The notes under the pieces were generated by a model, which was not told where the DNA came from, searched no databases, and saw only the letters and a program-made list of their open reading frames with translations. From Antedon mediterranea (taxonomy: Eukaryota > Animalia > Echinodermata), in assembly GCF_964355755.1 (NCBI RefSeq), contig NC_092676.1:26244871-26308870 (forward strand): a stretch of DNA of 64,000 nucleotides, written 5' to 3'. Both the position numbers and the translations under genes were made by a program. Shown here one piece after another: positions 25,101-59,322 of this stretch (its first letter is position 1; each line of letters starts with the position of its first letter).

Positions 25101-28100
25101 GCACTGTAGTATGAGTACGACTCTCGATAGTTACTCGTAGCTCGTTTTTCACACATGTCAAGAATCTCTAAGCTGCTTAGCAACACCCAACAATCAATAC
25201 TTCCAACTGGCATGCTGATCTAAATATAAAATAAGTTTGATTGATTATCATTAAGGAATAAAGAGTCATTCTGGGATTGAATTGAACCCTGGACCTTGGG
25301 ATTAGAAGGTAAACATTTTAACCACCCAGCTACTGCGTCACTATATAATACTGTAACCCGACACATGATTAATCAAAGCAATTGGTAATAGGTCAGGATT
25401 GAACCCTTGACCTTGGGATTGGAAGGCAAACATGTTAACCAACAGGCTACTGCGCCACTATCGATACTTTAACCTGATTAATCAAAGTAGGTGAGATAAA
25501 GTTTGATTTCCAGTACCTCTAGAATCCGTAGTTCTTGAACACAATTGTAAAGAAAAGCAATCGTTCTATTGGCGACCTCAAGAGGTCGATTGAGGAAGAG
25601 TAGAAGCACACACTGACGTGAGAACAAGTAGTTTCTGATGTCTAGGAGCGTTGGTTTGCCGGTCTTGATCAGATCTCGAATTTGTTGATTTATTGGTCGT
25701 GAAAGATCCAAGCCATCCCACCGTGTGCAGTTACCTTGAAACTTAATCAGCCAATCAGGTGCTTCTATTACAAACAAACAAAAAGACAATTTGGTTTATT
25801 TTTAATAAAAATGTAGTTTTACATTATTGCAGTGTTATTATTATTTTTTATCAAAATGAATCAAATCAAATTCTACTTACTTGCAGCTTGGGAGTTGATA
25901 ACAAATTGCGAGAAAAGTGCATCAAGCTCATCATATTGCACAAGTGCTTCGTCGTACTGCCGCAACATCTCATAAACGAACGCTAGTTCTTCCTATATAA
26001 TTTGTTTAAAAAATAAGTAACAAGTAAAGTGATTTAAGTACCTAAATCTTTTACTTTAAATTTGTAGAATTAATAAAAAATGATTTCTACCATCCAACAG
26101 CGGATCATGACAATTACACTACAGTATGATTAGGAACTCATTCCTTCTAAACTCTCATATAAGGCTTAGGTAGTGGCACTGTATTGACCTAAAAAAAAAT
26201 TGCGTACCTCTGACAGGATTTGAACCAAATACCCTGGGATTTGTAAGCAAGTAAGTTAAAAACCAATCCACAGTACCACTTTTAAAATTCCAAAAACACT
26301 ACAAACCTGTAGCAGAAAATACTGATTGAAATCCCAGCCAGGTTCATTTCGACGTTCTCGTTCTGCCCTCATTTTTTCTTCAAACTTGCCAAGATTGCGA
26401 TTATATGAGATGAGAAGCAGCTGCCGAAGGCGTGTCAGAAACACGTTCCAAGATTCTTGCGACCTCACTGACGGAACGGGATTATTTGGCTCATGTAAAA
26501 CTATACATCTGTTTATAAATACAGAAGCACAAAAAATTTATAAAATAAATAAATAACAGGAAATTGAATAATACTTTTGTAAAGCTCTGTCTACACTATC
26601 AAACTATATGTGACAAAAAAATGTGATGTACCCATATATGGACATGACGATGTCATATCACTACCATATTTTGGCATATCACTACCATATTTGGGTATTT
26701 GAGTTTTACATTCACAGTAATCAGCGGTAAACTTGCCTGTCGGATTGTTTGCTACAAAAGTCGTTTTTAATTTTGTCAAACACCGAGGTCCGTGGTAGCA
26801 ATTTCGTTTTCTGTCCACGCTTTGGGTTGCTCGCTTCTACGAGAACTATCATCCAATCATTGATGTTCTTCTCTCTAAGTAACTGTTGCCATTTTGATAT
26901 CTCTTCTTTGACGACAATCTTGTAAGCATCAACATCCTAAATGGAAAAAAAATAACTAAAAATAAGGTTATATTGCATGATAATACATATAACCTAATAA
27001 TTTACAATTGGATATTAAAGGGGACTTTCATAGGAATTCCTTATTAATCAAGCATTAAGTTGTTACTACAACTATGCCTATCATTTATCATCTATCTGAA
27101 TAAAAACCTATTACAGTATTGTGAAAAAGTCTGTTTAATTTACATTACTATATTTTAATTTTATTTACAGTTTTCAATAATTACTGAGAAGAAGAGGACC
27201 TACTGTATATCATAGGATTTTTTGGATTATTTGACATTTGTGAATTATTTTTTTTTTAGACTTTGAACTAATGTTCATTGTCTAATCTTGACATACACAA
27301 AATAAAGTATAATAAACACACCGGACATTCGGTCCAATACAAATGAAAGAACGATTGATGTAGAAGCTGTCTGCTGCCCTCATATTGTAAGATGTCAATT
27401 GAAAACGGCACAAACTGCACATCTACAGATATCGTCTTTGGTGCTCTCCCATATGACCTGTACAATCAAACATAACATTATTTGTAAAATAAACTTTCTA
27501 TAATATAATATTTTATGATCATAATTTATTTTCAGACTATACGAAGGTGCTCAGAGACCAAGATGAATAACAAATTATAGAATGGTTTGATAGAATAAAA
27601 ATGATACTCGCCCTGTAAGCAAGAGGTCGCAAGTTCGAATCCCACTGGAGACATTTTTTCATACAACTAAAAAAATATGGAACTTTCGCCGATGAGCTAT
27701 GCTCGACCCGATTATAAGATCATGTCCCAAATTTGAGCACTGTTTCTATAATTTGACAGTATGAATAATTGGACAACCTACACATTTAATATATCAACTG
27801 AAGAACTTATTTGATGATCCATCATTGAAGGGTCATGAGCTGTCAATCGAATGAATGAATAATATAAGTTTACCACCATCAATTAAATTTTCGCAATAAA
27901 AAAGAAATTTTTATTACTTACCTGCGCCACTCAACAGTATCTCTTGGCAGACTCTGTATCAATTCAGGGTGGAGTGATTTAAAAAGTTCTTGCTCACCAT
28001 GACCTGCAATTTGTCAAAAATTGGTACAATATATTTTTATTAATATATTAAAAATATATATAATCAAAAAAATTAGCATATAATTATAAAGAAAGTTTGA

Positions 28101-28790: not shown

Positions 28791-31081
28791 ATGGGCGACG
28801 ATTTGGACAACGAGTGGTGGTTGACAGAAAAAGAACAAACTGAAAAATACGCCGATAAAGAACAAGAATATGGTATAATAAGATTTTACATGAAACTTCC
28901 TTTTTAGAGCAACATTTTCGATATCTCTTGTTAGTCCTAGATTTTAATAAGAATAAGATGTCTCTATTTAGTAAACAATATAGGGCTAGGCCCTAGGTAG
29001 GCTAGGCCAAATGCTAGCCTTCACAAGAGTTGTAAGTAGGTTCTAAACTTACCACCACGGCACCGCAGAAGGTTGCCGACTAGCCCTAATTTCGGCCGCC
29101 TAACACTTGGTCGCGGCTGATTGTGGTAAAAGTAGTTTTAGGATGAGGTGGTGAACTATATTATTGTTGGATTAAGAATAGACTTAGGTCTAGGCCTACG
29201 CCTAATTATTTTTTTAATGTACCACTGAGTCAATAATTGTAAACATACAATTAAATAAATGATGATTTCTGTCAGCTTTATTTGTGTTGTGGTCTTCATA
29301 TAATTTATATTGTAAATAGTGTCATACACTTAAGTGAGGGTCCATAATGATCAGCTTCGGCTGGATGCACCACCCTCGTAAAATATTGTTGAAATAAAAA
29401 TAAAATAAATACAATTTTACTGACATTTCATTTGGGCAATTCATAAAAATTCAATTAAGAATTATAGATAACTAAATACTATTAGTATTTCTTTTTTATT
29501 ATCATTCAACAGATGTTTCAAATTCGAAAGGCAAAGTAAAAGGTGCTGGAAATAAGAAAAGAAGTTATGATGCAGTTGCTGTGGTAGAGGAGACAAGTGG
29601 ACAAGTAAAGAAAAAGAAGAAGGTAATAACAATAGTTAGTATATACTGTCTCGCAAAAATTAATAAACAAGTTTAAGTGTGAGAAAAGATCATTAAAGCT
29701 TGGTTCCCACTAGCGACGCAACCTACATAAGAAAATGCCCTTTCTATAATTGTGTTTGATTATGCAATACAGCACGCTTTAAGCATCAACAAGAGTGTCG
29801 GTCACATATTTGATCCTACTTGAGACTTTGGGTTAAAATTAATTAATAAACTATGTTTTGTTTTACATAGCCTAAAAAGAAGAAAACTGAAGAGGAAGAA
29901 GTTAAGGAATCTGCAGGGCAATGGAGCGATGTAGTTGCATCTTTACGGGATAACTTTAAGGGAAAGATTCCCGTTATAGAATTTGAAGACTTAATATTGT
30001 CTGGTAAGTCGTTTTACAATAACAATTTATCTTATAACAATCTGGGTCATTTTGTACATTAAAAAAAGTATACCATTTATGTTGAATCTGAATATTTTTA
30101 TTAATCAACTCTCCGGACTCTCTTAAAACCAGAAACTCTCCCAACAACCAGAAGGTCCCAAATTCTGTTTTACCATTAAAAACACATTCCGAATACCAGA
30201 CTATTAAAAAAACCATATTAGGCCAGCCCAAATGTGTCTGGTATTGGGAGAGTTGACTGACATACAATACATAGAAAAGTTTAAATGTACAATCCAAAAC
30301 CATGACTTTGTTGCTATTCCATTTTAAAGTTAAGTAATAAATAGTTTTTTCATTTTTTGGTACATTATCCTAAACTTTAGAACACTTCTATTTCCAGAAG
30401 AAAATTTTCTTCCACACAATGAATATTTAAATGATCTATCAACGTACTTAACTTGTACAATACGAAAGTGGAAGAAGCTGTCTGCCTCAGATGAGTTGAA
30501 GACAAAATCTCCAATAGTTTTAGTTATAACATCCGCAGCAAAGAGGGCGGTAGATTTAAATCGACAAGCAAATAACTTTAAAGGAAAGTGTACTTCTGCC
30601 AAATTATTTGCGAAACATATGAAAGTAAGTAGAAAACGGGGAATTTTTTTTTTCAATAGCCTACTATAGTAGTTAGCTGATACTAGCCCACATGCCATTT
30701 TTGCAAACCTGCGCTAGACTTGCCCTGCCTACACTTTTTTCAATATCCTTATGTTTATATAATTATTATTACTATAAGTGAAGTTGCAATATTAATTATT
30801 TAATATTATATTAATAGGTTTCAGAGCAATCAAAATTCTTGTCAAAAAACAAAGTCCATTTTGCTGTTGGTACTCCAAACCGTGTCTCATCACTCATTGA
30901 CCAAGATGCCTTGGACATTACAGCGGTCAAATATGTCATTTTGGACTGGAACTTTCGCGATCTCAAAAAACGTAGAATGGTCGATATACCAGAGATAAAG
31001 AAGGATTTGTTGAATTTTTTGAAAGACAATGTTTTGCCGACGATATTAAATGGAAGTCGATTGAAAATTGGTATTTACTGA
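28791..31081 (+). CDS. CMSS1: Protein CMSS1 (Cms1 ribosomal small subunit homolog)
   Basis: Exons 28791-28872, 29513-29622, 29871-30003, 30398-30624, 30818-31081. N-terminus MGDDLDNEWW; motifs SPIVLVITSAAKRAVDL, KLFAKHMKV, VGTPNRV and VILDWNFRDLKKRRMVDIPEIKKD..LKIGIY. Confidence 0.93.
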
Positions 31082-31303: not shown

Positions 31304-34300
31304 TCAGTCCGTCTTGATGAAAATACATCTTTTGCTTGTGCTTCTTCTACATCATCTACACTGGTACAAAGGCACGCTCCCTTTGGAGGGAAGGGTTTCA
31401 TTGCAGATGTAGCAAAGCTGGTTTTGTTGTAGTGATTGATGTTCCTTGCAATAATAGGCTATATGTAAAGAAAATTATTAGTATTATTATTGCAGATACT
31501 GTACAGTAATGCAATGCTGTATATTCAAACACATTTAGCTAAACAAAATAAAATTAGGATTTACTATATTTTTAAATATTTAACTTAGTGATTTATACAG
31601 TATTAGCAATGCAGTTTAGCAGTTTACACAAAATATTTACTTGCTTGATACTACCGTAGATGTTAATGGGTCAGTAATAGCTCATATGACCTTTCCTATC
31701 TTTTTATGCAACAAAACCATAAATACTAATTGAATATTGAATTGAATATATTTGGTTGATGCATGTTCATACCTTCATTCTGCTGATGTTGATAGAGTTT
31801 TGGAACCTCATTAGCACACAGAACGCAGCAGTTTCTGTTAGTCCTCCGCGACACCACGCTGCTGATGCCTCCTTTTGCATCTGCACAGGCGACACACATC
31901 CTCATAGGATGTGATGTTGCATCTCGTTCCCAGTCTGCTTTACAACGAAAATCCTGTCAATTAAGAACAAAGTATAACCTCTATTATTAAGGGGACACCT
32001 TCAGGACCCAATAAATTGTCCACTATGTAGGGTTGCCATAGTGTTAAAATATACCTCCTTTTCATTTTATATGAGAAAGTGTTTCCTGAATTAGCGTTCT
32101 AATGTTAAGTGTTTATATAGAGCATTCCACAAACAATGTCGTCTCTGTGGACTCTCCAAAAAGACTCGTTTTACCATCAGAACCATGGAGCGAGTAAGCC
32201 TCAAACCTTTGCCATAAATTACAGTTCAACTGTCTTAACTGCTCATCCTCTCACTACACTACTTACTAACTGTATAGTTTAGGATTCTATGACTTGTTCA
32301 AATTTTCTCAAATTATTAATAAAAACTATTGGATCATGAAGAGCATGAAATTGATTGGACTGAAAAGATTAGGACTCAATGTGCTGTGAAATGGATTTCT
32401 AGTTTTATCCTACAATAAATCAATTTTACCTTTAGTTGCTTAGCAATGGCAAAAGCATCCATTTGGTTTCGTCTGGTATCATGCATCAGAAAATTAACCA
32501 ATCTTTTGATCTCTCCAGCTTCTCGGAGCTGGTATGGCAGCTCTGTGATCACCAGTTTAGAATTATTGCAGTGATGCTCAAAGAAGTCTGCTAACTTTAA
32601 ATGGACTGCTTTATATTTTTTCTGATCACTTAGTAGTTCTTTTTTAACAGTCTTAAAAAGAAGAGGCCCCAGGTTGGAATCTTTGAATGAATTGATGGAA
32701 TTAAGATAACCAGCAAGAGATAGAGTTTTTTGGAAAAGTTTAAGAAAACATATGTGAGGCGACTTAATTGGACTCTTTATCATTAATTAATTTTTGTTCT
32801 CATTTATGAAAGAAGCTCTTTATTTTGTTATTGAGTTCAAAAGCAGTAATAAATAATAAATTAAAAAAATTATAAATATTTTTGTTATTTCCAATTTTGT
32901 ATTTTACATTATCTGATTTCGTATTTTTCAAATGTTATTGTTATCATAATAATTTTATTTAAAAAAAAGCAAAAAAATAACAAATAATTATCATAAATAC
33001 TGTACCCTGATAATAGATGAATGGAAGAAGTTAAACTGGTCTATCCGTCCTGGTCTGCTGCTATTCCTCAGAAAAGACTTCAATGTTCTCCTAGCCCGAG
33101 TCCACAGCATCATTGGAGCTGGTGTCTGGCAGTTTCCAAGGATCAATTTCAACTCTGTTTCTGTTAGGCCTTGTCGAGAACACTCTAAAAGGCATAGAAT
33201 CTGGAAGATTCAAATGAAAGTGTCATTTACCAAACTATATTTCTAGATCATGATTAAAGCAGAACTTTCCTGTATTGATTAGGACAATTTGTGTATAGTA
33301 GTTAATATTTAAATTATTAAATTGTAAAATACAGTACAGTAAATTATCAATATTAAGATTTTCTTTCAACATTTTTGCTGGAGAGTATTTTGGTAATATT
33401 CACCTCTTTCACATAGCCTGTGTCATCTTCCTTTATCATTCTCCTGATGATCTCCGCCAACAGATCTTCTAGAATGAATGGCAGTGACTTGATAAATTCT
33501 GTCAGGCGTTGAAATAATCCAAATACGCGTAGCTCTTCACATGCCAACCACAACCAGAGAACATTTTCAGCTCCTTGAGATGTTGTGAGCAGGGATAGTT
33601 GCTCTGGATCTAAACTCTCTCTAAAATCCAGGATATTATTAATATATTTTTATACAGAAATAGAATTCATGACAATTAAAAGTATGTGAAAAATCACTAG
33701 GTTTATACAGTCTCGGTTTATTTGTATCTTACCTTATTGTACAACTTGAAGTAATTTTCAACAAGTTTTGTTCTTGCACTCTCAGGCAAGTTTGGAAGGT
33801 CAAGTTGATATGCTTCAGGCGACACAGAATCGAGGTTGCCTAGGGTTACAGGATCACGTGTTGTACTGATGATGAAGCGCACAGTGTTATAGCTTTTTGC
33901 TGGAATCCATTTTAGAAAGTCTGTACAATGGGTTAACTTGAATAAAATTGAAAAGTATTTTATTTTAGTATATTGTGTAAGACCTTCAGATAGTGATTGT
34001 TAAGTTCATTTTTTAGAGATCCTGTCTGGTTATGCGTGTTGTTTTTTCTTGTTCTTTTATGTTTTGTATTGTATTTTTATTTATCGCTTGGAGACAAGAT
34101 AAAGAAATTGTTTTTAAACAATACCCTCGGCATACCGCTGCTGAGGGTGTCTTACAATTCACTTTATGACAGAAATAAAATGAATCTGAAAACATTTAAA
34201 CGAGGAAGGAAGTCATATATTCTAGTCAAAGGTCATTGCTTTACCTATTACTTTGTATGAGTATTGTTGTATATTGACATCATGTTTATAATGTAGATCA

Positions 34301-36907
34301 TACCTGATTCACTGCATCCACTACAACCAATAGCTGTTCCTTTGATTTGCCGAATTCTTTCAACATCGTCAAATAAACTGGTAAAGCCCGACTATACTTA
34401 AAATCTCTCTTCATTTCTTCCAATCTCTTGTCTTTTGCACAAAAAAAAAAAAATTATTGTTATGTATTTATATACAATAGGGTTTGTGAATGTTAGTGAA
34501 TGTCCTGACAAGGGTGCATTCATTACTACTGGAGGTGGAGGTTAACCAAGACTTTTATTCGGGAATGAAAAAGTTTAGTTTGAAAGAGATTTTTCATTAT
34601 AAATGCAAAATAATGTATGATAATACCGTCGTGTTTAGTAATTGCTTCACAAAGTCTGGGCAGGAGGCTAGCAGGGTCTGTTGATCCGCAACCAACAAAG
34701 TGGTAGAACACATTCAGACTAGCCTATAACGAGATATTAATAATGGTTTTTATTAAAACATATATTCATTTTTGAAGATGTTTTTATTATGTTTCTTTCC
34801 ACCAGCCTACAATAAGATATTGATAATAATCTTTTTTTTAAATTAAAATATATGATTTCATTGTGATGATGTTTTTGTTATGTTTTACCTTCTTAGCCTC
34901 ATAAACGCATTTTGCCATGAGGGCGCTCTTTCCTTGTCCAGAGTCTGCCATAATCACCAGGGGTGGTGTCTTGACACTACCGGAAGCCAAACCACCGACT
35001 TTCTTGTTTTCTGCTGGCAAACATCGAGACTTAATGAACTCTGTCTCTATAACAATCTTGTCTGTGGCAAACTTTAGCATGGTTTCCACTAATTCTTCTC
35101 GTCCATAAACATAGTTGGATCTTCCGAAGGTGTAGGAAACTGGGTGATTATAGCTTGTTTAAAGTAGTTTGTGACCAGCTCTGCAAATGTTTCTAACCCT
35201 TTCAAGCTCACCTATAAAATGATAATTGTAGAATATGGTACTACTGACAGTGTGTATGTTAAGAAGGTTAAGTGGATTCTAATTTCAGTTCGGCACTTAA
35301 AATTTGCCACTTTTAGGCGCTGGGACCCCCTATGTCAAAATCCTGAATCAACCACTACAAAGGACACAAGTAAGACAACATGTAGGCAAAGAGCAAACTA
35401 CAGAATCAAATCTTGGCTCTAGTCTAAAGTGTGCTGCAGATGGATAGCCTGCTGAACAGTACCTTATTTTTCTCAATTCCTTCTACCTCACATTCATAGT
35501 CCTTTACCTGGTTTGGAAAGGTATCTCGAAGTCGTCCCTTTAGCTCCTAAAAAAAAAATTGTGACACAATTATGCCATTCTACTGTACACTAAATATTGA
35601 GATAAAGATAATTGCCAAATACTTCAAGTTAGAAAGGCGTAACTTACCTTTAACTGAGCAACAGCAAGAGGGTCCTTATCCACAAAGGAGAAGAAATAGT
35701 GCATTGGGGTTTTTATTGCGGAAGGCTCCATTGATTATCTCCATGTGAGTTATGGAAAACCCTGGAATCCATTTATATTGTGCAACAATGTCAGATGGAA
35801 CATCACTTTCCCCTGGAATCCATCCATATCTATAAAAACAAAAATCACTAATACAGTAAATACAGAGCAGAGAATACAAAATAGATACAATCATTTTGAA
35901 ACAGAGAGTAATTTTGACTCAATATTGAATGACTGTTTAAGAGTCGGAATCAGTGTCCAAGTGGTCTTTTGTAGTTCTTTATTTTCACCACATTTTGTAA
36001 GTTTATATTTGTTTGTTATCCATTGACTGGAACCATAAAATCACTTACCGTTCACTTAACATGTTCAGGAAGAATCCATTGCCTTCTGTCTCATCGTGAC
36101 CTCTCTCAATTTCTTCTAAACATGTGCAAAGGATGGTTCTGGTTGTAGAGTCTTTTGGAACACCCCACCGAAGATCACATTCAATCAAATGTAGGTGGCG
36201 CTTTTCACAGAATTCTCGTAAATCTGGGAATACCTAAGATTTAGTGAAACTAACTTGCTAAAAAAAAATAGTTAGAAGAATATTGCAATTTCGTATTATT
36301 TGTGTATGTTATCCGGTTTCCATTTTTAAACATTAATGTCGAATAGAGTAGGTCTACACTATCAAGCTTTATGTGTCAAAATAATGTGATGTGCCCATAT
36401 ATGGACATGATGGGCACATCACTACTAAATAAATTTGAACACATCACACTTTTTTTGTCAAACTAGTTGGATAGTGTAGACAGAGCTTCATCTCTTCATG
36501 AGTAGAGCATCTTCTAAAGGGCAGAAAATAAAAGCTAACCTAATTGTCAAATTATAACAACAACAATGTGAAATGTGTTCAAGGCAACTACTGTGTATAT
36601 AAGAAATTACAAGATCAAAACATATTCTATGAAAACAACCAATGCTACTGTAGAGTGGGGCTTTATTAATTGTCGTAGAACTTACCTCTTTTACTAACAC
36701 CTCCCTCTCAGCATAAAAGTCAGCAAATGTTGATGAAACAAACAAACGAATCACCTGCCAGCCACTGGCCTTTGTTGATGGTCCAATATGTTCCTCCTTC
36801 TTTGATGAGCATTGTGCTTCAAGAATTTGCCAACATTTTTGGATGGCATCCAGGATGGATTCATTCTCAGTGTCCTTGGGTAATGTTTCTGAAGTGTTGG
36901 CAGCCAT
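31304..36907 (-). pseudogene. DUF4062 + STAND/NACHT-like NTPase + PHF5-like Cys array, paralog B, disrupted
   Basis: Same exon layout as 38532-45924 (IRLFVSSTFADFYAEREVL, DLRWGV, ADSGQGKS, LLVVVDAVNQ, LWLACEELRVFG). Two frameshifting deletions of ~50 nt relative to the paralog (near 35690 and 35127), plus an in-frame TGA at 31352-31354 inside the last CxxC. Confidence 0.85.
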
Positions 36908-38531
36908 TGTAATGTTCAGACTTTTGTCTTGAATACACAAATTATATATACCTGTATTGCCTCCCTTTGTTACAATTTATAAATATTGCCTCCATTCAAA
37001 TAATTGTTAACATTTTTTGTGAATATCCCATTCTAATGTTGCATAGTTTTTTACTAAAAAAAATTTATTTACCTGTAACTGTAATCTAAAGCAAACAATT
37101 GTCAAATTGGCTGCCAGTTTTTTTTTTTGGTTAAATTTAATTGTTAAAAGTTAAAACATTTTTTCATTTTTTCTTTCTACTATTTAGTTTTGTTATGGTT
37201 ATGATAACTACTACTAGATCAGTAACTTCACTTTTGATTTGTAGCACATAGGGGTTGATCCAGGATTTTTCAAACAGAGGAGTGGTATCGATTCAAATAT
37301 CTCCAGATTTATATTATTGCCTAATAAGTCTCCCTGGATTTAATGCCTATAATTGTATAAACAATGCCTATACTAATACTATGCAAATGTCTCAACATAG
37401 AAACAAATTAACAAAATATTTACCTTGATTTTTATTATCTGGATAAAGCAATTGATGATAGAAATGCTGGTAGTAGCCAGTTTCAGTCAGAGAAATGTGT
37501 TGCGTTTTAAAGATTATTATGAAATAAACAACTTCAGAAAAGATCCTACCTAAGTAATTCTCTCTCTCTGATTGTAAAAGCACTGCTTATTTCTTGTGAA
37601 TAATAATACATATATATCCTTAGCTTCCTTTGTAATGTATTTTGCTACCTGTCCTCGCTTTATCTTTGATGTTTTGAATAAGGCCAATTTGTCATAACTT
37701 CCTATATACTGTAGTATACAAGGTCATATATTATTATGTCATAAGTTTTGACATGAATTTTAGGGCCTGTTTGTAAAAGTCAATTTTGTATATTTACAAT
37801 CATATCTTAGTTCACAGACTTGGAAAAGTATATGATGGGAAAAACCTTCATTATTATTATTAAATATTTTTTATATAAATTTTAACTGCCATTTCAACTG
37901 CAATATTAATGAAATGCAGTTAGATTTGTAGTCGTCGATAGCTAAAAGAAGTTTAGTTTACTATCAAAATATAATAATCATCTTTTAACTATTAGTTAAT
38001 ACAGAATACAATAAATATCAGACAATCAAATACTATAATACATTTTATAATTGTTTCTAAAAAACTATTTGCAATACAAAAAGCAAAAAAATATACCGTA
38101 TATTTTGGCAAGATTATACTAATAGTTTACATTAATCTGTCCTATTGGAAACTGTCTTTGGTGACTCATTCCAGCACACATCCCACTTTTGATTAAAAGT
38201 ATGTAAAACATTGTAGATTTAATTATCACTGTTTATTAATTACATATTTCTGTTTTTGCTTCTTGTGTGAACACAATGTTGATTTTTATTCAATAGATGG
38301 AAACTTCCCCAATTGCCAGAGTCCAGTGTCGGAAATGTAAACCAGAATTGTCTAGTCTCCATTTCCTTTCTGTTTGTTAAGTATCTAACTATTCTTTAAA
38401 GCTCTGTATACACTATCAAACTTTAAGTGACAAAAACATGTGATGTGTCCATATATGGACATGATGATGTCATATCACTACCATATTTGGGCACATCACA
38501 CTTTTTTTGTCAAACTAGTTTGATAGTGTAA

Positions 38532-41500
38532 CTATTCTTTAGTAACTAGTCTTGTGCATCTTCTTTGGTTTCCACCATTACAAATCATGCATACATACAT
38601 AGGTAGTGGTTTGTGTATAGCACCCATGGGTTTCTTGCAAACAACACATGTGTCTTGTGTTCCAAATATGCCCCTTGAATGGTCCATGCACAACATTGCT
38701 GAAAGAAAACGACTCTTCAATTACTTAAATAACTGATTTTTTTTTACTATGATAATACATCTTAGACTTTGTTTCCCTACCTCAACCTTTAAGCTCTGTT
38801 TACACTATCAAACTAGTTTGACAAAAATAATGTGATGTACCGAAATATGGTAGTGATATGACATCATCATGTACGTCTATAAATGGGTCTATCAGCATTA
38901 GAGGTGGCAGTTAGCACTGTTATACGGTACTACAAATTCTAGCTTGGCCTTTCCAGGTAAATTCACTATTGGATCACAACAGTGTTGAAAGGCACAACTT
39001 TATTTGAATTGTGAACTTAAGCTTTTAAGGCATTAAAATGCTACTAGTTCAAAAAGCTACCAGTTCAAAAAGTGGTCTTTAAGTGCAAGAGATGAACATA
39101 TCTTACCTTCATTTTCTTTCTTGTTTTGAAATGGGTCCACACACTCCCCACACATAAGGCAAACCTGTTTATTAGGCCATGCAGAACGCTTGACAACCCC
39201 GCCTCTAAAGTTCTGGCAAAATGTGCAAATTTTAACCATTTTTGCAAATGGGCCGGGAGATAAAAAGCGTTTCTGACATCGTAAATCCTGTTGAGATAAT
39301 AATACAAACCATACTATATTAGCAATGATCACTTAAGCTTGGTTCCCACTAGAACGTAACACAAGGACGTAAACGCAAGCGTGTTAACCAATGACAAGCG
39401 ACAGTTTGAATAATCCATCGCTTGTGATTGGTCAATTCACTTGCATTGCGTTTACGTCCTCGTGTTGCGTCTCTAGTGGGAACCAATCATAAGAGTTTGC
39501 CTGTTACTGTATGCTAAATTTAGTTTTTTCTAAATTCTAAATTCAACTTACTTTCAACGTTCTAGAAATCATAATCCTGCCCATCTTTGATGCTCTTGTG
39601 TCCTCCATCACAAAATCTGCCAATCTCTTTGTCTTTCCCGCAGTCTTCAGTTGATATGGAAGCTCCTGGACAACTCTACTATCATTCTGACAATGATACT
39701 GAAAGAACTCTGCAAGTCTTAAGTGTTGGACTTCCTGTTTTTCTGGACTTGATAGGAGGGTTGTTTTTACTGCCTATAAAGAAAGAGAAATTATGGTTGA
39801 GAGAAAACTGTATCAGGAATGGATCTCAATGGAGATACAAAATAAAATAAGCAAAAAGCTAAATCAAAACAATAAAATAAGACAGCCAGAAAAATTAGAG
39901 CTTTCAGGCAACACTAAGTCTTCATCAGGAATGATAGTTTTATTATTATTTATTTCCTTTATTGCATCAAGTAAGCAGTGATGAAGTTGACATAAATATA
40001 ATAGTAAATATGTAAACACATAGTATAACACAGTCCAAACAAGTAATACTAAAATAAATCATAGTCCACAAATCAGTCTTTCAATGGCCATCATAGTACA
40101 TCCAGTAACACAAACCAATAGGGGTTCACAATTTGCTTATCATAACTCAGTTACTGATCATTCACCAATCATTGAAAACTCCGTGGAAAGTAATGAAGTT
40201 TTTTGTGCGTTGTGTCCGGATAGTTATATATAAAGAGTGGATAATTATAAAGCAATTTTTATCAAGTTCTTCAAACCTTTTTAATTGATGCATGAAAGAA
40301 ATCTAACATTGGTTCCCCTCCTGATCCGCTAGAGTTCCTTAAGAATGGCCTCAGGGTTCGTCTAGCTTGTGACCATGGCAACATTGCAACCAGTTCGTTT
40401 TTCTCGCAATCTCCCAACATAAAATGAAGTTCAGTTTCTTTCAAACCAGCTTGAGAACACTCCAAGAGGCACAGTATCTGAAAAGTATTGATAAGAAAAA
40501 AATAAAAAATTTGCCTCAACACAAAAGTGTTAGTTTAACAAACACATTTTTAGAAATTGTTGCCCTGAATATATTACTTGATTGATTAGCTATTGGGGCT
40601 TAAGAGACAGTTGATACAGTATATAACTATATACTGGACAATCTTTGGCACTAAGTTTAAACTTTCCAATTTGTATTTTTACCTGCTCCACAAATGAGGT
40701 TTCATCCTCATTTATCATTCGTTGAATAATTTCTGATATTAAACCATCTAGAGATGGGTGAAGTTGTTTTATGCGTTGAGTGACTTCCTCAAAAACTCCA
40801 AAGATGCGTAATTCTTCACAAACCAGTGACAGCCACAGGACATTTTTGGAGCCTTCTGATTGGACAAGTAAAGCAAGTTGTTCAGGATCTAGTTTCTGAT
40901 AAAAAAATGTGTTATTTCTGAACCATCAGACAATTGATTTTGTGAGAAATATTTAAAATGTTGCATAATCTTATAGTTTTTTTCATTTCAACTACACTAC
41001 AAACATTGTGAACTTTCTCAAATAAAACTTCATACCTTGTTGTACCGTCCAAAATAGTTCTGAACTATGTCCATTTTAGCTGACTCATCCAAGTCCGCGA
41101 GATTGAGTCTTTCTCCAGAGGGCAGCATATCATTGATTTCTTGCAATGTGCCACCTTCTCTTGTAGTACTTATAATAACTTGTATCGAACCAATCACTTT
41201 TGGTGGAATCCATTTGAGATTGTCGTTGCCCTTCACAAGCTGTAATGGATATTAAAAATAATAGATGAAAAACGCTGATGCAACCAAACTCACCTTCTTC
41301 TTGTTGATGATTTACTTTAATAATAAAGGTCATGGCTATTAGGCTCCACTAAAGTCAAAAGTGCGGACTTAGTTTTACTTATTATATTGTTTTCATTACC
41401 TGATTGACGGCATCAATTATTATCAGAAGCTGTTCATCTGTTTTTCCAAATTCCTTCAAGAGGTTTGCCAGTAGTATCAAAGCTCTTTCATAATTAAACT

Positions 41501-44500
41501 TCTTTTTTAACTCGGTCCATTCTGCATCTGCAACAAATTTTAAAATACATACATGTGAGATCATATCAATCTACTTATCTATCAATAGCATTTATAGTTT
41601 CACAATAATGTTTGAATGATGCTCATTACAATTCAACTTTCATTGGGAACTTACTTTCAGTTTTTATCAGAGTCTCACAAAGTCTGTAGACTAGATTCGA
41701 TGCATCTGTTGATTGGGCTGTGCATCCAACAAAATGATAAAACACATTCAACCCTTCCTGTCAATTGCAAAAAAATACATATAATAATATTTGATAGTAT
41801 AAAGACACAATAGATGTATACGATTGGTCATGCGCAACAAGTTTGAGGAGCTGATCTGCTGATTTTCTGCTCAGAACAGCCTAAAAATAATGGATTCATT
41901 TCTGTTCATTACGTGTACAGCCCCATTAGAGAATGTGTTCATTTTTACCCGAAGTTTTGAAAAACTTCGGGTAAATGTCACTTAACCTCCTACTGTGACA
42001 TGTGTTTATATAAGTCTTTGATAGGCAGGTCGTTAAACCTTTTGATCATCACCGAATTTTGCTAGTTTTTGCCTGACCTTTGACCTTGAATACTGAAGAA
42101 TGTACCTTGTCCTAATCAATCAATTACAAGAGAGCTAATAAAATCACAGGGGTATAATAGGATTCAGGTAATTTATCACCTGCTCAGTTGATTTATCTGA
42201 TAAGGATTTTGACCAAAAAGTTCTAATGGGGATGTACACCTAATGTTAGATAATTGGAGGGAAATACGCAAAGAGACACAGCCAAGCATATGTAATTTTA
42301 TACTAGACATGAAACTCGTCACTTTGACGAGTTAGTTATCCGCACGACAGATGCCACGTGCACGTCATACGTTAAAAACTATAATAAGAGGTGGTCCTGT
42401 ATTTTCGCCTTGTAGGCTATTATAATTATACAGTACACTGTGTATAAAAGGAGACATTAATTCTACATGATACAGAGGGCGGCAAACAACAATTTGCTCA
42501 CATCAGTGACTATGCTGGTGTACATTGTACTACTGTATTATTATATGACATATTAACTGAATTATGGGACCTGCCTTTAATTCAAATATTTAACATGATG
42601 ACGTCATAAAAAAAACAACACAACGATAGCAATTTCTGAAGAAAATTATCTTAGCAACAACATATTAACGTGTAGAAGAAATTTGAATACGTAAAATGTT
42701 GGTGCGCGCACATTTAAATGTGATGAACTATTACGCAAAATATGAAAATACGACTTTTTTTATTCAACTGGCAATATGATAACGTCACAACATCCGATTG
42801 GCAAAATGTTTACATGAATTCGTATCTACAATCCTATAGCTTCCAGAAAACGTTTCAATCGTGATTATCACATTTTATTCTTACGAGCTATTACAGATTA
42901 AAATTTACTGTAAAGATGAAATTAATGACCCACGTAATTAAAATTTTTAGGCATGATGACGTTATAAAAATTAAAATATTTTTATCTCATGCTAAAGAAA
43001 GTTGATTGACCTAGACAATATATAAATATAGGAGAAAAAGGAATACAGATAAGCGTGATGCGCTCCATTGAATGTGATGAGCAATAACGAAACAGACAAA
43101 AATCCTATATTTTACATTCGTGTGGCCATACGATTACGTCACAATGTTTTTTTAGCCTTATCGATGCATGATCCGATATCTGCAACTCATCAACTTCTAG
43201 ATTTTGTAATAAAAATAAACGGTTCACGGTTTACTTTAGAAACTATGACTGTTTAAAAAAAGACATTATTTTGATGATTTTTTAAGCTTTTTCATAAAAA
43301 ACGCGCACAAATTGTCTAATTCAACGTGTTCGTATGGCGTTATTTAAACTGGAAAAGTTCTAAATTGTTTTCAAAATTACTAGGAAAGGCTTGAAAAATA
43401 TAATTCAAGAGAAAAAAATATGTTTTTATCGCTACGTGCGCACCGCGTGCGTAAAAAATTGCGCGCCCGTGGGAATTTTTGACATGCTCAAAATGACATG
43501 AAACGCGTAAAAAGTTGATTAGAAATTAATTTTGCGCATTTTGAAATTTTAAATGCGCGTGCGCGCGTAACTTCTTGTGAAACATGCCATTTTTAATCCG
43601 TAGAAAGTTTGCCCCTGATATGACTTAAATTTTGTCAAAGTGTCAATACTAAATGACTTTTGGTTTTTAATCTATGATCAATCATTGAAATTCATAAAAT
43701 TGCGCGTAAGTCACGTTGCGCAACTATGACGTCATTCAAAAATAGGAGGTGCACAACTTCACGTAAATGCCCATATGTTGTCAAAGTTATGAAATGTTAT
43801 GTTTACACATTTTAGAGAAACGCGACTCACAAAAAGGAAGGAAGGAAAGAAGAATAATACAGAAAAAAAATGTTGATCTCATACAATAACAAGGAGTTAT
43901 CCGCTTGGTATACCAAGCGGATAACTAATAATATGCAGCTCAAAGAATGTGCACTCCTCCTTGCTAGCTTACCTGTTTTGATTCTCTGACACATTTAGCC
44001 ATCAAAGCACTCTTCCCTTGACCAGGATCTGCAACAACCAGCATTGGTGAACTACCCTCTTCTGAGTCCTTACTTGATTTGGCAAATGTCAGCATCTTCT
44101 GGATTTCTTTGCTTCTGCCAAACACCATAGTACCTCTTTGCTCCATGAATATCTGGTGTTGCTGTGTTTCTATTTCTTCTGGTGTTTGGTTCTTTACTTC
44201 TTTTTCTGGATACTTCCTTGCTATGGCAGACTTGAAGAAGTCCAAAACTGTCTTGGCAAAATCGTCTTCAAGACCAACCATCTTAACCTTTTATGATGAT
44301 ATTTAGTCATATTATTAACAAGTTACAAGTATTGATTCATATGTAAAACTTAACTATATTTATAATTTATGCATAGAAATTTTATTTTATACTTTATGAA
44401 GAATTTTGACAGAATGCTAACTGTACGGTACGTACCTTTCCATTTTCAACAGAATCAACTTTACAGGAATAATCAAAAACTTGCTCTTTAAAAGTCTCTC

Positions 44501-45924
44501 TCAGTTGTTTTTTTAGTTCCTGCAATTGAAAAAAGGTTATTCAGTGATGTAGCCACAAGATATAAAGTGGTGTGGTTTTCGCAAGAAAGGGGAACAATCT
44601 CTGTTCAAGCCACTAGGTTGTCAAAGGCCCCTGTGACAAAGTGGTCAGGTTGAAACCTTAATACCAACCGTACTGCTGGCTACGGCCCTGTTGTTGGAAA
44701 ATTGTTACTTGTTTGCCATTCATTTGTTGTTAAATATCATATACAGTACGGTATATGTTGTTTTTCTTTAATATTCAAACACAGGCTAATAGTGAGTGAG
44801 TGAGTACATTACCTTCATTTGTATTTTACAATAATCGGAGTCATCAACAAAGCCAGGCCTTTGATCAGTAGGTAAATCTTCAAGAAGTACGGTATATGTT
44901 GTTTTTCTTTAATATTCAAACACAGGCTAATTAATAGTGAGTAAGTGAGTACATTACCTTCATTTGTATTTTACAATAATCGGAGTCATCAACAAAGCCA
45001 GGCCTTTGATCAGTAGGTAAATCTTCAAGAAACGATGAATCCCTTATAAGAAACAATGAATTTGGATTGTTTGATGTATAAGCCCCTCGTACAATCTCCA
45101 TGTGAGTGACCGAGGTTCCGTGCACCCAATCATATTGCTTGGTGAGGTCAGCTGATACTGCTTCCTTATTTGGCACCCATCCATATCTAAAACAATAGAA
45201 ATTTAAATTATTATAATTATAGTATATCTATGGATATATAATAATAACAGGTTAAATTTATTATTTTTTATTTGCTTTGACCTTTCACTTAGCATGTTAA
45301 GAAAGAACCCATCTCCTTCTGCTTCTTCATGACATCGTTCTATCTCATCTAAACAAGTACATATTGTCGTTTTAGTGGTCGAATCACGTGGTACTCCCCA
45401 CCGCAAATCACATTCTATTAACTGTAGGTGGTGCTGTGTACACCATTCTCGTAATTCAGGAAAAACCTTTTGAATAAAAAGAAAGTCATGAGTTCTCAAA
45501 ATAAAACAATGGATTCACTTTTAAATTTCTAGAGAATTAAAGACATTTTACTTTTACATTTTACTAGAATGCAAGAACAATAATTGTGTAAATAAAAACC
45601 TATTATATAACTATTTAAATAAAATTTCAAATAAATTCTTTAAGAGATTAAGATTCAACAATCTAAGATGAAAATGAACAAATAGAAGGTATCAAGAATG
45701 GATTGGAATGAATTACTAACCTTTTTAACAAGAACCTCTCTTTCTGCATGAAAATCACGGAATGTAGATGAAACAAAAATGCGGATGACTTGCCAATTCT
45801 GATTTGTTTCCTCATTCTTTTTGTTTTTCGTTTTAGATTTGTGTTCCCGCCGTTGCTTCTCAATCTGCTCCCAGCATTTGTTGACACATTCCTGTATTTC
45901 AGTTTCATTGGTCGGTAAAGACAT
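38532..45924 (-). CDS. DUF4062 + STAND/NACHT-like NTPase (TEP1/NWD/NPHP3-related core) with a C-terminal PHF5-like zinc-binding domain, paralog A (~811 aa)
   Basis: 13 in-frame exons: 45924-45721, 45466-45282, 45186-44958, 44519-44436, 44287-43973, 41757-41655, 41527-41400, 41239-41036, 40895-40683, 40477-40277, 39773-39552, 39287-39107, 38698-38532. DUF4062 motifs RIFVSSTFRDFHAERE, DLRWGV, ERYGWVP, SVTHMEI. Walker A ADPGQGKS and Walker B LLIIIDAVNQ. Winged-helix-type GLKETEL..FFHASI and ELPYQL. Confidence 0.88.
42302..43931 (-). mobile_element. Helentron-associated non-autonomous element (HINE / DINE-1-like) in a paralog A intron
   Basis: On the minus strand: 5' subTIR AGTTATCCGC with its inverted copy (palindrome 43895-43926), then a TTC/TTCC microsatellite. 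At the 3' end: subTIR GCGGATAACT, stem-loop AACTCGTCA-AAG-TGACGAGTT and a terminal CTAG. No ORF. Confidence 0.75.
44746..45031. repeat. Tandem duplication (~141/145 bp) of an exon 3' end and its splice donor
   Basis: 44746-44886 is nearly identical to 44887-45031, including the coding segment FLEDLPTDQRPGFVDDSDYCKIQMK and AAG|GTAATG. Confidence 0.92.
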
Positions 45925-46281
45925 GTTGGATTCACAGAAATGATTGTCTACCGCAAGTCCAAGCTCTGTGGAAACAACAACGAGAGAGTGGGTTTTACAA
46001 CATTGTGGCAAATACAACACTATAGGACCTTGAATGTGACAAGATAGTGTGGTGCGGTGCAGGGTAGGAACGAATTACCCTAATTTCAGTTTATGGATAA
46101 TGAACATTTCTAAAATAAAAATGTCCCCATTCTATAATTTAAACATTAAAAATAGGTGTTAATCAGCATTTGTCCCTTATCACCTAACCCTTTTTATTTC
46201 AAAATAAGAGATTTTTATTCTACCTATTGTTAGAGTGTCGTTGTCATAACCTTACCTTTTTAAATACAGTATATAAATAAC

Positions 46282-46309
46282 CATAGAGATTCACTATAAT
46301 ATCTTTATG
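46282..46309. mobile_element. Short CATAGAG...CTTTATG insertion with 7-bp TSD (same family as 5674-5709)
   Basis: AAATAAC-CATAGAGATTCACTATAATATCTTTATG-ATATAAC (TSD 6/7 identical). Confidence 0.55.
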
Positions 46310-49300
46310 ATATAACGCACTCTATCAATATAAACCAGAGAAGCACTGTCTGGTATAACACACTCTGGTTGCAAGATAAGTACCGTATATCAACAATGAT
46401 ATTCCACAACTGTTTAAATATTAATGACTACTATCTACAATCCAATGATCAGGATGTTTATTCTAATATGTATAAGAACGACAAATACAAGCCTGATCGC
46501 TTGAGTAACTTCCCCTTTCAAGTGACCAACCACAAACATTATCCTGGATCAGTTCAAGCGATGAAAGGAAATAAATGACAATATATTATTTTTTTGTCAA
46601 TTGTTAGAAATATACGGAAATAAGAAGCAGAATATATTTAAAAGTTGTTTCTTTCTCAGACATACTGTAATATACAAATGTAATACAGCATAAAAAAGGA
46701 GATTTCTCATAATTAATTGTGTGTAAAAAGTCATCAAGATGCAAAAAATGCCTAAAGCTGTCTACACTATCAAACTAGTTTGAAAAAAAAAGTGTGATGT
46801 GCCCAAATATGGTAGTGATATGCCAAAATATGATATGACATCATCATGTCCATATATGGGCATATCAAATGTTTTTTCTCACATAAAGTTTGTAGACAGA
46901 GCTTTTTACATCATAAACAAATGTACAGCATCAAAAAGATTTGTAAAAATTATATTGTGTGTATGAAAGTCAACAATAGAATATACTTATGTACAGTATA
47001 TTGTTACATACAATACATAGTCATACAATGTGACTGCTCAGATGGAAGTTTTTAAACAATGTAAATTCCAGATTTTAAATAATAGAACACAAAAGGGTAC
47101 ATATCTAGTGCAACTTGGATTAGAATATATAGAAAAGGGAAAGTGAACTTCTCTGATATGATACAAACTGTCTTCAACTATGAATGTGGTTTTAACTCCT
47201 TTAGAGCACAATATACAGTACTGTACATTATAGTATGGTACGACAAACTGCATTGAAATCACTTTTGTTTGTTTTAAGTAAGTATAAGTTTAGTTGATGA
47301 TTCTGAGTGCCGCCAATAAATAAATATACTGTAATCATTGTTTTAAAGGATTTATTTGTTACCTTTTATCTGATTTTCCTTTCCAAAGTACATATAAGGC
47401 CTAATTATAAGGTGTAGTATTTACAATATGGTTATTTAACAAATTTGGAGTCGAAAGGGAATTTGTAAAGGCAACAAGATTCACATCTTTCTGGGATCTG
47501 CCTTCGTCCATTTTCTTTCTTTCTCTTGCCATTGTTTCTTTTTGTCATTTTTTGTCTTTTTGACTTTAATAAATGTTGTTTAAATTGAATTGAAATAAAA
47601 GACAGGTGCGAAACGGAACCAGCACGAATAAAATAAAGTCTCACCTTCATTAATGTCAAAGAAATAATTCTTTGCATTTTGCATTGTATTTTCACATGAT
47701 CTTAACACATTGAGTTGTTCCTGTCTTGAGAAGCACCGCGTTGGTGTATTTATGTATAGCCCATTGCTGAAATACAGGCCGCCTGGAATAGAGCGGCGCA
47801 TGCCAGCCACAACTCGTTTATCCTGCTCGCTCCTTCCACGTATTGAAACTGTTGCCCCCATTTAATTCTGCAAAAAAATAAAGTAAAGAAGAAATACAAC
47901 CTTTGTTTTTAATTTTAATAATACAAGAGAATATACATATTCTATGCCTTATATAGAGAACAGCAAATTGAAATAAACGTACCCATAAAAGACAAAAAAA
48001 AAGAAGAAATACAACTCCTTAAAGCTCTGTCTACACTATCAAACTACTTTGACAAAAAAAAGTGTGATGTGTCCAAAAATGGTGGTGATATGCTTAAATA
48101 TGGTAGTACTATGACATCATCATGTCTATTATGGGTGCGTCACATTGGTTGTCACATTAAGTTTGATAGTGTAGACAGAGCTTTACAACCCTTTGGACTG
48201 GTAAAAAATGTCTTTAGTTTTTTTTAGTAGGAAATAATTTAGGAAACAATTTTTTTTTTTGACAATAAGAGCGAGTCAATTTAAAAGAAAAATAACAATA
48301 CAATTTATTATCTAACCAAAACAATACAAACTAAATTAATTCATATGTTATCTAGACAAATAACCAATTTAATTTGTGTTTGGTTTTTCTTTGGTATCTA
48401 GCCTGTCACCTTTGTTTGCCCCCACGCGTTACAAAGGAAATCCTGTGGGATGGTACTTAACTTTGTTAGGATGACTTAACCCTTGTTGAGCTGATACTTA
48501 AAGTTGGGCTTGATAAAACATCACTTAAGAAATTATACACTGCTAATTGTTTGTATTTTTAACAGGAAAAATTAATTTACCGATTATTTCACCTAATATT
48601 TGTAATTAAGCATATGGTTTTTACTAATATTACCTTATCTATTCATTTACATTTCTCTTCTTGAATTTCTGAAGCGTCTTACCACCTCCCTGCCGTGAGT
48701 GTTGACAGTTGCCAAGTTTGCTTTACGCTTCGCTGAACACGACAACTATGGAACGCCTCATGGACAATTACATTTGAAAAGGTGACCAAGTTAAAGCCCT
48801 GTCTGCACTATCATACTTTATGTGACAAAAAAATGGGCCCATATATGGACACGATGACGTCATATCACTACCATATTTGTGCATATCACTACCATATTTA
48901 AGCACTAGTTTGATAGAGCCGTTTACATTTGTTTACGTTTTTAAGCCAGTACAAACACAATCACCAGTTTTCAACACTGACGCTTGTGATTAAATATCGC
49001 ATACTGGATATATCTTACTAATATACATCACATCAGATCTGTTTTACTTTATGACTAGACTATGTTTATTTTTGTTTCGTTATTTATTTTATTACACATT
49101 TTTAGCTGCTCAGAGTTGCTATTGCTAAAAAGCACCTAAACAATCCGTGGGTATTGTAGTCATGTGGTTGATAAACATCATTTAAAATTAAAAACTATTT
49201 AAAAAATAATCGAAAGTACATTCTGGTTTTACAACGTTTTCTATGTAACATAAACATAATGTTTGCATGTTATTGTGTAAAACATTGTACTACAGCAAAT

Positions 49301-49346
49301 ACATTCACTCAGTCTGTTTGCGTACATAAACCAACAACAACTAATT

Positions 49347-50189
49347 ATGAGTAGTTTTTCGGTGAAATATTTGGTCATCTTTGCATTGATAATTACATTA
49401 GTACAATGCGATCGTCTTTATTTCAACGTTTCACCCAGAGATACAGTTTACGAAGGTTCAAATCTGACAATGCACTGTCTAACCGACCTCAACCTGAAAT
49501 TTGCTTATGAGACAAAACGATATGGAAGTAACAGATTAGAAGGAACATGTTCTTCTGGGGATCGACATGTTTATCCTGAATTTACCATATCTTGTAACAC
49601 GTCTACGACCAGTGCATTGCTGTTAATATCATTAGATATTTACAACGCATCGTTTGGACAAACAGGTGTTTACAGGTGTTGGAATTCTAACGGATATAAA
49701 TTTATCATATTAACTGTTCTTTCCAAACCTACTCCAGCCTGTACAACGACCAGTGCTTTTGTCGAGGCTGATATTCCGAAAGAGTTCATTTCGTACAGTG
49801 CGACTACAGTCGGGCCAGCGTTGTACAATGGGACTACAGTCGAGCCAGCTTTGTACAGTGGGACTACAGTCGAGCCAGCTTTGTACAATAAAACATCAAA
49901 AACAAATGGACCAGCAAAGTCGGAAGGAGAAGAGATAAGCCAAGCCAAACTCGATCTAATTAAATACATATCAATTGCTGGTAACATCGTATCCATAGTC
50001 ATCATCGCGATTCTATCTATCTGTTCCTTCCGTAAATGTAACAGAAAGAAAAATAACTTCCAACAAGCAGATATGCCTACAGTTCCTGTAGGACATACAA
50101 TGGGTGAAGGAGGCTACTTGGGTTATAAATTAGTTGTCAGTGAGATGCAGGAGCACATCTATCAAACAGTTGTTAATACGAATAAATAG
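49347..50189 (+). CDS. Intronless type I membrane protein with a single Ig-like domain, Thr/Pro stalk and Tyr-motif tail (280 aa)
   Basis: Signal peptide (MSSFSVKYLVIFALIITLVQC); Ig hallmarks VYEGSNLTMHC ... LDIYNASFGQTGVYRC; three copies of TTV(E/G)PALY; TM segment YISIAGNIVSIVIIAILSICSF followed by RK; cytoplasmic LGYKLV and HIYQTV. Confidence 0.85.
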   Translation: MSSFSVKYLVIFALIITLVQCDRLYFNVSPRDTVYEGSNLTMHCLTDLNLKFAYETKRYGSNRLEGTCSSGDRHVYPEFTISCNTSTTSALLLISLDIYNASFGQTGVYRCWNSNGYKFIILTVLSKPTPACTTTSAFVEADIPKEFISYSATTVGPALYNGTTVEPALYSGTTVEPALYNKTSKTNGPAKSEGEEISQAKLDLIKYISIAGNIVSIVIIAILSICSFRKCNRKKNNFQQADMPTVPVGHTMGEGGYLGYKLVVSEMQEHIYQTVVNTNK

Positions 50190-58537: not shown

Positions 58538-59322
58538 ATTTTCGATATTTCAGTGGACTTGAGGTATAAAAATCGTAAATTAAACCGTTTCGTTTTGATC
58601 CGCGACGACGACTCGACTGCACGCTTCTTTTTCTTTTCAAAATCAAAATGCTGCTGCTCTAACTAACTATGATGTGTGAGATGTGCATTCCATGATTTCA
58701 TCTAAATAATATGCTGTAGTTGGTGTTGAATAATCCATGTTAACATAAAGCAAGTAATTCAATCATGTTTTAATAATATATGAGGACTCATTTAATAATA
58801 TTATAACAACTATTATTGTAGAAGAATATCTCCTAAACACTGATAACCAACAATGATTATACCTTTGGCGTTTCATAATTCTATTTAGTGTAACCCAACC
58901 AAGCGGAACGCGATTCGCTTCAATGGACAAGTGATGGTTTAGTTTATATTTCTAAGTTCTCTTTTACTTTAGATTAGTATTGTTATTAAATAAACTATAT
59001 GAGTAGGCTTAGACCGGTCTTTATGCCATATATATTTTATACTTTCAGTGCCTAATTCACCGAGTAAATCAGTAAGTGTATTTACATGTTAAGTTCAAGT
59101 TTTGGTTAAGCCCTAGCTAGGCCGAATATTCAACATTCCTTTCCGATGAGTAGGCCTCACTCCCCTGAATCAGCAACTTTTCTTCGGCACACTACTGACT
59201 ATACAGTACATACATTAAACCTTAGGTAGGGCCTACCTTATCTAGTCCTCTGAGTGAGGATAGGGGTTTTGTTCTTAGCCAATACATTCATCTTAAATTT
59301 TTTAGAGTTTTTAATTTCAGGC

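Follow-up and report, generated by a model that had tools for sequence, protein, structure and literature searches.

The DUF4062 domain, now renamed NIR, has been shown to be a NADase in bacterial defence proteins and in TEP1 by two preprints of 2026 (10.64898/2026.05.01.722283; 10.64898/2026.09.04.749371), the first of which reports that the NADase activity of TEP1 increases with concentration. The WD40 repeats of TEP1 have been proposed as the signal sensor that drives NACHT oligomerisation and NADase activation. An N-terminal DUF4062/NIR domain beside a NACHT-type STAND module is also found in NWD1, NWD2, NPHP3 and TTC41, whose C-termini consist of WD40 or TPR repeats, and the bacterial proteins Avs-NIR, Swarozyc, Vulcan and Vesta combine a NIR NADase effector with a sensing part at the C-terminus, Avs-NIR having a STAND core as well. 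Here we analyse a 64,000-nt stretch of the genome of the crinoid Antedon mediterranea (contig NC_092676.1, positions 26,244,871 to 26,308,870 of the forward strand; hereafter the window) that holds a gene of this kind, named gene A, whose predicted protein ends in a zinc domain instead of repeats, a domain that very probably has the fold of PHF5A/Rds3.

PHF5A/Rds3 (PF03660), a subunit of SF3b folded as a triquetra knot, is a small protein that contains 12 Cys and occurs on its own. The tail of the gene A protein shares with it the twelve-ligand layout, the single Cys at each end and a predicted fold that can be superposed, but it is fused to a larger protein, has one His among its ligands and longer loops, shows 15-22% identity in structural alignments and falls below the Pfam cut-off. 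The earlier note on this DNA had suggested that the architecture was undescribed, and indeed no DUF4062-NACHT-PHF5 fusion was found in a literature search, with subscription journals and preprint supplements lying outside that search and the EukProt survey of the NIR preprint possibly including members without noting their tail. The words "zinc" and "PHF5" are absent from the main texts of both NIR preprints. Judged by sequence, the core belongs to a known kind, and the tail and the family appear to be new.

Core and tail of the gene A protein

The exon borders of gene A were placed by hand after reading positions 37500-47000 of the window. The 13-exon model of the earlier note stands: all 12 introns are GT-AG, the coding sequence of 2436 nt opens with the ATG at 45924, closes with the stop at 38532 and has no internal stop, and the resulting 811 aa are identical to residues 87-897 of P0001, the NCBI protein named "telomerase protein component 1-like [Antedon mediterranea]". 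With exon 12 as query, two proteins were retrieved among 4 candidates, P0001 (100% identical) and P0002 of Anneissia japonica. The splicing of the tail to the NTPase is backed indirectly, by contig arithmetic. Five sequencing runs cover the stretch, none recorded as RNA, and one of them (X1) was taken as RNA by guess. Its contig of 2402 nt (depth 30.3) carries exon 5 at contig positions 647-960, and variant rows of equal depth fall in exons 1, 5, 6, 7, 8, 10 and 12; 12 of the 14 rows lie within 2 bases of the exon-border distance and the remaining 2 give the contig start. From its length, the contig ends at base 59 of the coding sequence and 24 nt beyond the stop, within a repeat, which fits a single transcript across all 13 exons.

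The earlier note had read the protein as a DUF4062 head on an NTPase, and the Pfam scan of P0001 bears this out, the cut-off being passed by DUF4062 (E 4e-9) as well as NACHT (E 8e-9); single exons of gene A gave nothing above cut-off. In a sequence search of the PDB, the sole match at E <=0.001 is the DUF4062 domain of human TEP1 (11gz_A, E 1e-25). The TEP1 residues R908, R954, R976 and the catalytic E1008, taken from 10.64898/2026.05.01.722283 and mapped with a single numbering offset that fits all four, align with R56, T101, R130 and E160 of the gene A protein. The position of E160 is Glu in all 24 family rows that cover it, and R130 is kept in 23 of 23. Besides the head, the catalytic Glu and the R976 equivalent, the protein has in common with human TEP1 the adjacent NACHT module and an APAF-1-like helical part, but it is only 811 aa long, lacks an R954 equivalent and carries the zinc domain at its end; the TROVE/vWA domains and WD40 repeats of TEP1 orthologues appear neither in the Pfam scan nor in the full-length model. 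The database name "TEP1-like" thus reflects the shared core only.

The full-length model, built from a 27-row alignment, has a mean predicted local distance difference test score (pLDDT) of 82.3. Its best Foldseek matches are APAF-1, Avs3, RPP1 and CED-4 (E 5e-11 to 2e-9), and NOD2 and NLRC4 were also matched. An HD1 and a winged helix are present in the model behind the P-loop domain, and Pfam HTH_NWD1 is a weak match (E 0.047). By sequence and model criteria the protein is a NACHT-type STAND NTPase. It is not a strict NLR: no leucine-rich repeats are seen in the Pfam scan or the full-length model, and the protein stops 7 residues past C804. It shares the effector-STAND-sensor order with APAF-1, CED-4 and plant TIR-NLR resistosomes, but its effector would be NIR rather than CARD or canonical TIR, and it has no repeat sensor. 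It also differs from the bacterial NIR defence proteins, which are activated by phage products and sense through TPR/HEAT or other auxiliary domains, in being encoded by an intron-containing animal gene. The DUF4062 domain had been proposed in the earlier note as the effector, and on the strength of its alignment with a domain that the two NIR preprints show to be a NADase, and of the kept catalytic Glu, it is likely an enzymatic, NAD-cleaving one.

In the last 115 aa the candidate ligands are arranged as C-(CxxC)2-CxxH-(CxxC)2-C (C700, C717/C720, C739/C742, C760/H763, C774/C777, C793/C796 and C804). This layout of a Cys, five CxxC/H pairs and a Cys, already described in the earlier note, never arose when either the whole protein or its last 115 aa were shuffled (0 of 20,000 in each case). 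The complete set of 12 ligands occurs in 25 of 27 long family rows, and the remaining two rows are truncated models; this conservation arises in part by construction, the alignment rows having been partly picked by domain profile. If the ligands pair as in PHF5A, the three zinc sites would be C700/C760/H763/C804, C717/C720/C774/C777 and C739/C742/C793/C796.

The AlphaFold2 model of the tail (61 rows, no templates) has a pLDDT of 89.6 and a predicted TM score of 0.82, and the five models agree (pLDDT 87.5-89.6). Every one of the 15 rows that Foldseek lists down to rank 16 is a chain of SF3b/spliceosome or PHF5A/Rds3 (best E 0.012, highest probability 0.97, TM by query 0.39-0.47); past rank 16 come PHD and RING chains at TM <=0.22 and a further spliceosome chain at rank 19. 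When VIA-align compared the tail with 48,161 solved representative chains, two reached a Z of 2, namely PHF5A (4.9) and Rds3 (4.5). In a closer structural alignment the best Z is 5.6, with a root-mean-square deviation of 3.2 Å over 79 aligned residues (model 1-114 on chain 8-91). The tail superposes colinearly on the PHF5A/Rds3 chain from end to end, with a shared break point at the termini. The tail is therefore very probably of the PHF5A/Rds3 type, as the earlier note had proposed and as far as a predicted model can tell.

Two points count against this fold assignment. The fold scores are modest, no Foldseek match reaching E <=0.001 and Z remaining below 6, and tail profiles of 1, 7 and 61 sequences (phmmer/profile) miss PHF5A in the PDB and retrieve weak unrelated matches only. 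The middling scores would suit a wrong model and a tail made of an unknotted run of ordinary LIM, RING or PHD fingers, which we regard as very unlikely given that the five models concur, that no other chain was found at Z 2 and that the single Cys at both ends, required by the Rds3 layout, is conserved. A distinct question is that of origin, as the tail could have reached a three-finger fold by triplication of GATA-like fingers, with no descent from PHF5A. Rds3 consists of three fused GATA-like fingers, one of them split by the chain ends (PMC7614390 and PMC4506424), so that the weak three-part internal repeat of the tail (probability 78-81) is expected. The missing sequence link to PHF5A in the PDB speaks for an independent origin, as do this repeat and P0087 (302 aa, JGI/IMG), a protein that combines an N-terminus rich in Gln and Pro with several PHF5-like units; the two show that such units can multiply. 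However, P0087 also acts as a bridge: it matches Pfam PHF5 above cut-off (E 1.4e-7) and Rds3 weakly (E 0.017), and the family profile aligns to it at probability 95.9. It is not a PHF5A and represents a further home for this finger type. Furthermore, Pfam PHF5 appears below cut-off (E 0.002-0.016) in 6 of 80 search hits, and the colinear superposition with its identical break point also speaks against independent triplication. We hold such an origin to be unlikely. The Pfam search for PHF5 proposed in the earlier note gave no match on P0001 or P0002, nor on the last 200 aa of P0001. The ESM Atlas contained no usable match to the Antedon or newt tail, and a Foldseek comparison of the tail with viral structures gave 0 matches at E 0.001 (best 0.92).

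The family and a proposed mechanism

Residues 480-897 of P0001 retrieved 11 proteins among 6140 candidates, 7 of which end in the full 12-ligand pattern, and a profile of these 7 complete tails retrieved 82 proteins at E <=0.001 among 1.84 billion representatives. Species were looked up for 30 proteins, 10 of which carry no species. The named members come from cnidarians (the jellyfish Sanderia and Rhopilema, and the coral Desmophyllum, whose model has no tail), molluscs (Haliotis, Lottia, Lymnaea, Pomacea, Nucella and Dreissena) and deuterostomes (crinoids, starfish, sea urchin, sea cucumber, hemichordates, amphioxus, lamprey, bichir, frog and newt). Amniotes, teleosts, arthropods and non-animals are absent from the named hits, no search having been aimed at these groups. 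In a tree made by a quick method from 29 rows, with two long-branch outgroups, echinoderms, hemichordates, molluscs and vertebrates group much as in the species tree, and cnidarians and amphioxus are unresolved at the base.

Stand-alone tail proteins were considered and rejected, since 18 of the 19 new hits of at least 500 aa have the NACHT module and the last is a BED-finger false positive. Among the 29 short hits for which upstream letters exist, 23 have Gln at the splice-acceptor position, as against 4 of 37 spliced proteins, an excess that makes the short hits look like translated terminal exons. Most of them apparently share with exon 12 of gene A the phase-0 intron at which they begin. 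The tail was probably acquired once, as a terminal exon, before the split of cnidarians and bilaterians. Four family proteins of the frog Pelobates cultripes (P0093-P0096) have close accession numbers and contigs of equal size, which suggests a local expansion. Outside the family, the DUF4062-NACHT protein P0010 (853 aa, ENA) ends in a small two-CxxC zinc-ribbon-like tail and has no repeats; AjNLR-new of sea cucumber was discarded as a family member, being a different protein according to PMC13133943.

The modules of the family are unequally conserved. The head is the best conserved (median pairwise identity of 50%), followed by HD1/winged helix (38%), helical domain (30%) and NTPase (29%), and the tail is the least conserved, its 19% without the ligands not necessarily meaning selection, as the loops of small zinc domains often vary fast. 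Beyond its ligands the tail conserves little (R699, G743, A757, G799 and a partial NKD motif). It is basic in 25 of 25 complete rows, with K+R minus D+E of +3 to +12 before zinc thiolates are counted.

Gene A is accompanied just downstream by a tandem paralog, gene B. The earlier note stated that the paralog keeps every ligand: the ligand codons are present, but an in-frame TGA (31354-31352) lies inside the last CxxC, exon 3 has 183 nt versus 229 in gene A, a frame-shifting deletion, and another such deletion affects exon 5. Gene B is most likely a pseudogene in this assembly, judging from these lesions, and offers no independent sign of function. Its closest match is P0003 of Anneissia, whose contig equals in size that of P0002, so that the tandem arrangement is probably older than the split between the two crinoids.

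By analogy with APAF-1 and TEP1, we propose that the gene A protein is a signal-gated, oligomerising NADase with the zinc tail as sensor and lock, a reading to which we assign a probability of roughly 0.5. The role of the tail is suggested by the effector-STAND-tail order, which matches that of APAF-1 and TEP1. The tail occupies the same position as the WD40/TPR sensors of related proteins, and its variability and basic charge in the complete rows look like traits of a sensor. At rest, the protein would be an ADP-bound monomer that the helical domain and the zinc tail keep closed. Binding of a ligand to the basic tail, with RNA or an acidic protein surface as the likeliest candidates, would permit nucleotide exchange and oligomerisation, and the DUF4062/NIR domains clustered in this way would hydrolyse NAD(P)+ to ADP-ribose and nicotinamide.

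Several observations weigh against this mechanism. According to the two NIR preprints, full-length NWD1, NWD2 and NPHP3 show no NADase activity in vitro, so that a kept Glu is insufficient to assure activity, and of 5 eukaryotic domains screened in E. coli toxicity is reported for TEP1 alone. Moreover, a counterpart of TEP1 R908 occurs in just 2 of the 22 rows that cover this position, gene A among them, and one of R954 in none. The species-like tree and the mostly low copy number are also unlike those of usual pathogen-chasing receptors.

The main rival explanation, which we consider possible though doubtful, draws on some of these same facts: the tail would be a structural cap or a module for docking into a complex, and the protein would serve in housekeeping or development as a scaffold whose NADase is slow or absent, like NWD1 and NWD2. 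The roughly vertical, mostly low-copy inheritance, the inactive relatives and the poorly matched Arg positions are all in its favour, and PHF5A/Rds3 is itself a spliceosome component and not a sensor (PMC7614390). However, the head is the best-conserved module and keeps its catalytic Glu throughout, and a surface docking on a fixed partner should be conserved, whereas the tail keeps few residues other than its ligands. An integrated decoy was among the ideas of the earlier note; as a copy of PHF5A that traps pathogen proteins or drugs aimed at SF3b, it would fit a predicted PHF5A-like fold fused to an NLR-like core, the several copies on one contig in Pelobates cultripes and the tandem pair in crinoids. 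It has been weakened by the low identity to PHF5A/Rds3, a loop between the first two CxxC pairs about 14 residues longer than in these proteins, the His among the ligands, the lack of a conserved surface in this least conserved module, the species-like low-copy family and the broken paralog, and is now highly improbable.

Gene structure and genomic surroundings

The NCBI model P0001 has 86 more N-terminal residues than the model of gene A, mostly from an upstream exon, exon 1 also beginning earlier. This additional exon may be untranslated. In a 146-bp tandem duplication at 44745-45031 (96.6% identical), the 3' end of exon 3 is repeated together with its splice donor, which creates a second possible donor at 44812; the length of the X1 contig agrees with the first one. 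A roughly palindromic repeat of ~130 bp, likely a miniature inverted-repeat element, starts at the stop codon of gene A and has many copies in the window, with very high depth in DNA runs.

The neighbours identified by Pfam within 2904-31078 and 59254-61918 are ordinary genes. No Pfam match at E 0.001 was obtained for two long exons of charged, low-complexity sequence (612 and 953 aa) at 6953-12635, nor for a predicted membrane protein of 302 aa at 49281-50189, which is encoded by one exon and contains a short tandem repeat.

Table 1. Position in the window of gene A, its exons and coding landmarks, the tandem paralog, repeats and neighbouring genes
Feature	Positions	Strand	Details
Gene A	38532..45924	minus	13 coding exons, 811 aa; DUF4062/NIR - NACHT - HD1/winged helix - helical domain - predicted PHF5A-fold zinc domain
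Gene A exon 1	45924-45721	minus	
Gene A exon 2	45466-45282	minus	
Gene A exon 3	45186-44958	minus	
Gene A exon 4	44519-44436	minus	
Gene A exon 5	44287-43973	minus	
Gene A exon 6	41757-41655	minus	
Gene A exon 7	41527-41400	minus	
Gene A exon 8	41239-41036	minus	
Gene A exon 9	40895-40683	minus	
Gene A exon 10	40477-40277	minus	
Gene A exon 11	39773-39552	minus	
Gene A exon 12	39287-39107	minus	Start of zinc domain (C700, C717/C720, C739/C742); opens at phase-0 intron
Gene A exon 13	38698-38532	minus	Remainder of zinc domain (C760/H763, C774/C777, C793/C796, C804), then stop
Upstream exon of NCBI model	~47861-47646	minus	P0001 aa 1-72; pLDDT near 30, not conserved
DUF4062/NIR TIR-like domain	44210..45795	minus	aa ~44-260, exons 1-5; Pfam and PDB match
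E160 codon	45096..45098	minus	Aligned with catalytic E1008 of human TEP1; alignments
Walker A ADPGQGKS	44009..44032	minus	aa 320-327, exon 5; G, G, K invariant in 27/27 rows
Walker B LLIIID	41412..41429	minus	aa 407-412, exon 7; D in 26/27 rows, E in 1
HD1, winged helix, helical domain	39552..41239	minus	Exons 8-11; full-length model and Foldseek
Gene B, tandem paralog	31304..36907	minus	Exon layout matching gene A; probable pseudogene
~130-bp palindromic repeat	38405-38530, 38789-38880, 36352-36488, 46763-46892, 48020-48185		
Amine oxidase gene	4282-4551		Pfam
Cupin/JmjC-like gene	16821-17078		Pfam
TRAPPC10	20031-26537	minus	Pfam
CMS1	30334-31078	plus	Pfam; ends ~230 bp from last codon of gene B
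TRAF-zinc-finger F-box gene	59254-61230		Pfam

Meaning of the fusion for the family

Taken at its broadest, the family may be an old class of NLR-like NADase receptors of animals, with a knotted domain of PHF5A type, taken over from splicing, in the place of the repeat sensor; on detecting RNA or RNA-protein particles, this domain would trigger NAD+ depletion. Such a class would have survived in lampreys, bichirs and amphibians, and the triquetra knot would for the first time be seen in use outside the spliceosome; we put this forward tentatively, as an idea that is more doubtful than not.

As the fold was found only in PHF5A/Rds3 among the solved chains compared, the knot would occur a second time in the gene A family, which would also offer a natural system for learning how it folds at the end of an 800-aa chain. 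The family, which extends to vertebrates, is mislabelled in databases as "TEP1-like" or "TPR repeat-containing". Its small member in Antedon, with a 115-aa candidate sensor instead of many WD40 repeats, makes activation testable by one deletion. With DUF4062 newly established as a NADase, the family bears on what activates the eukaryotic carriers of this domain.

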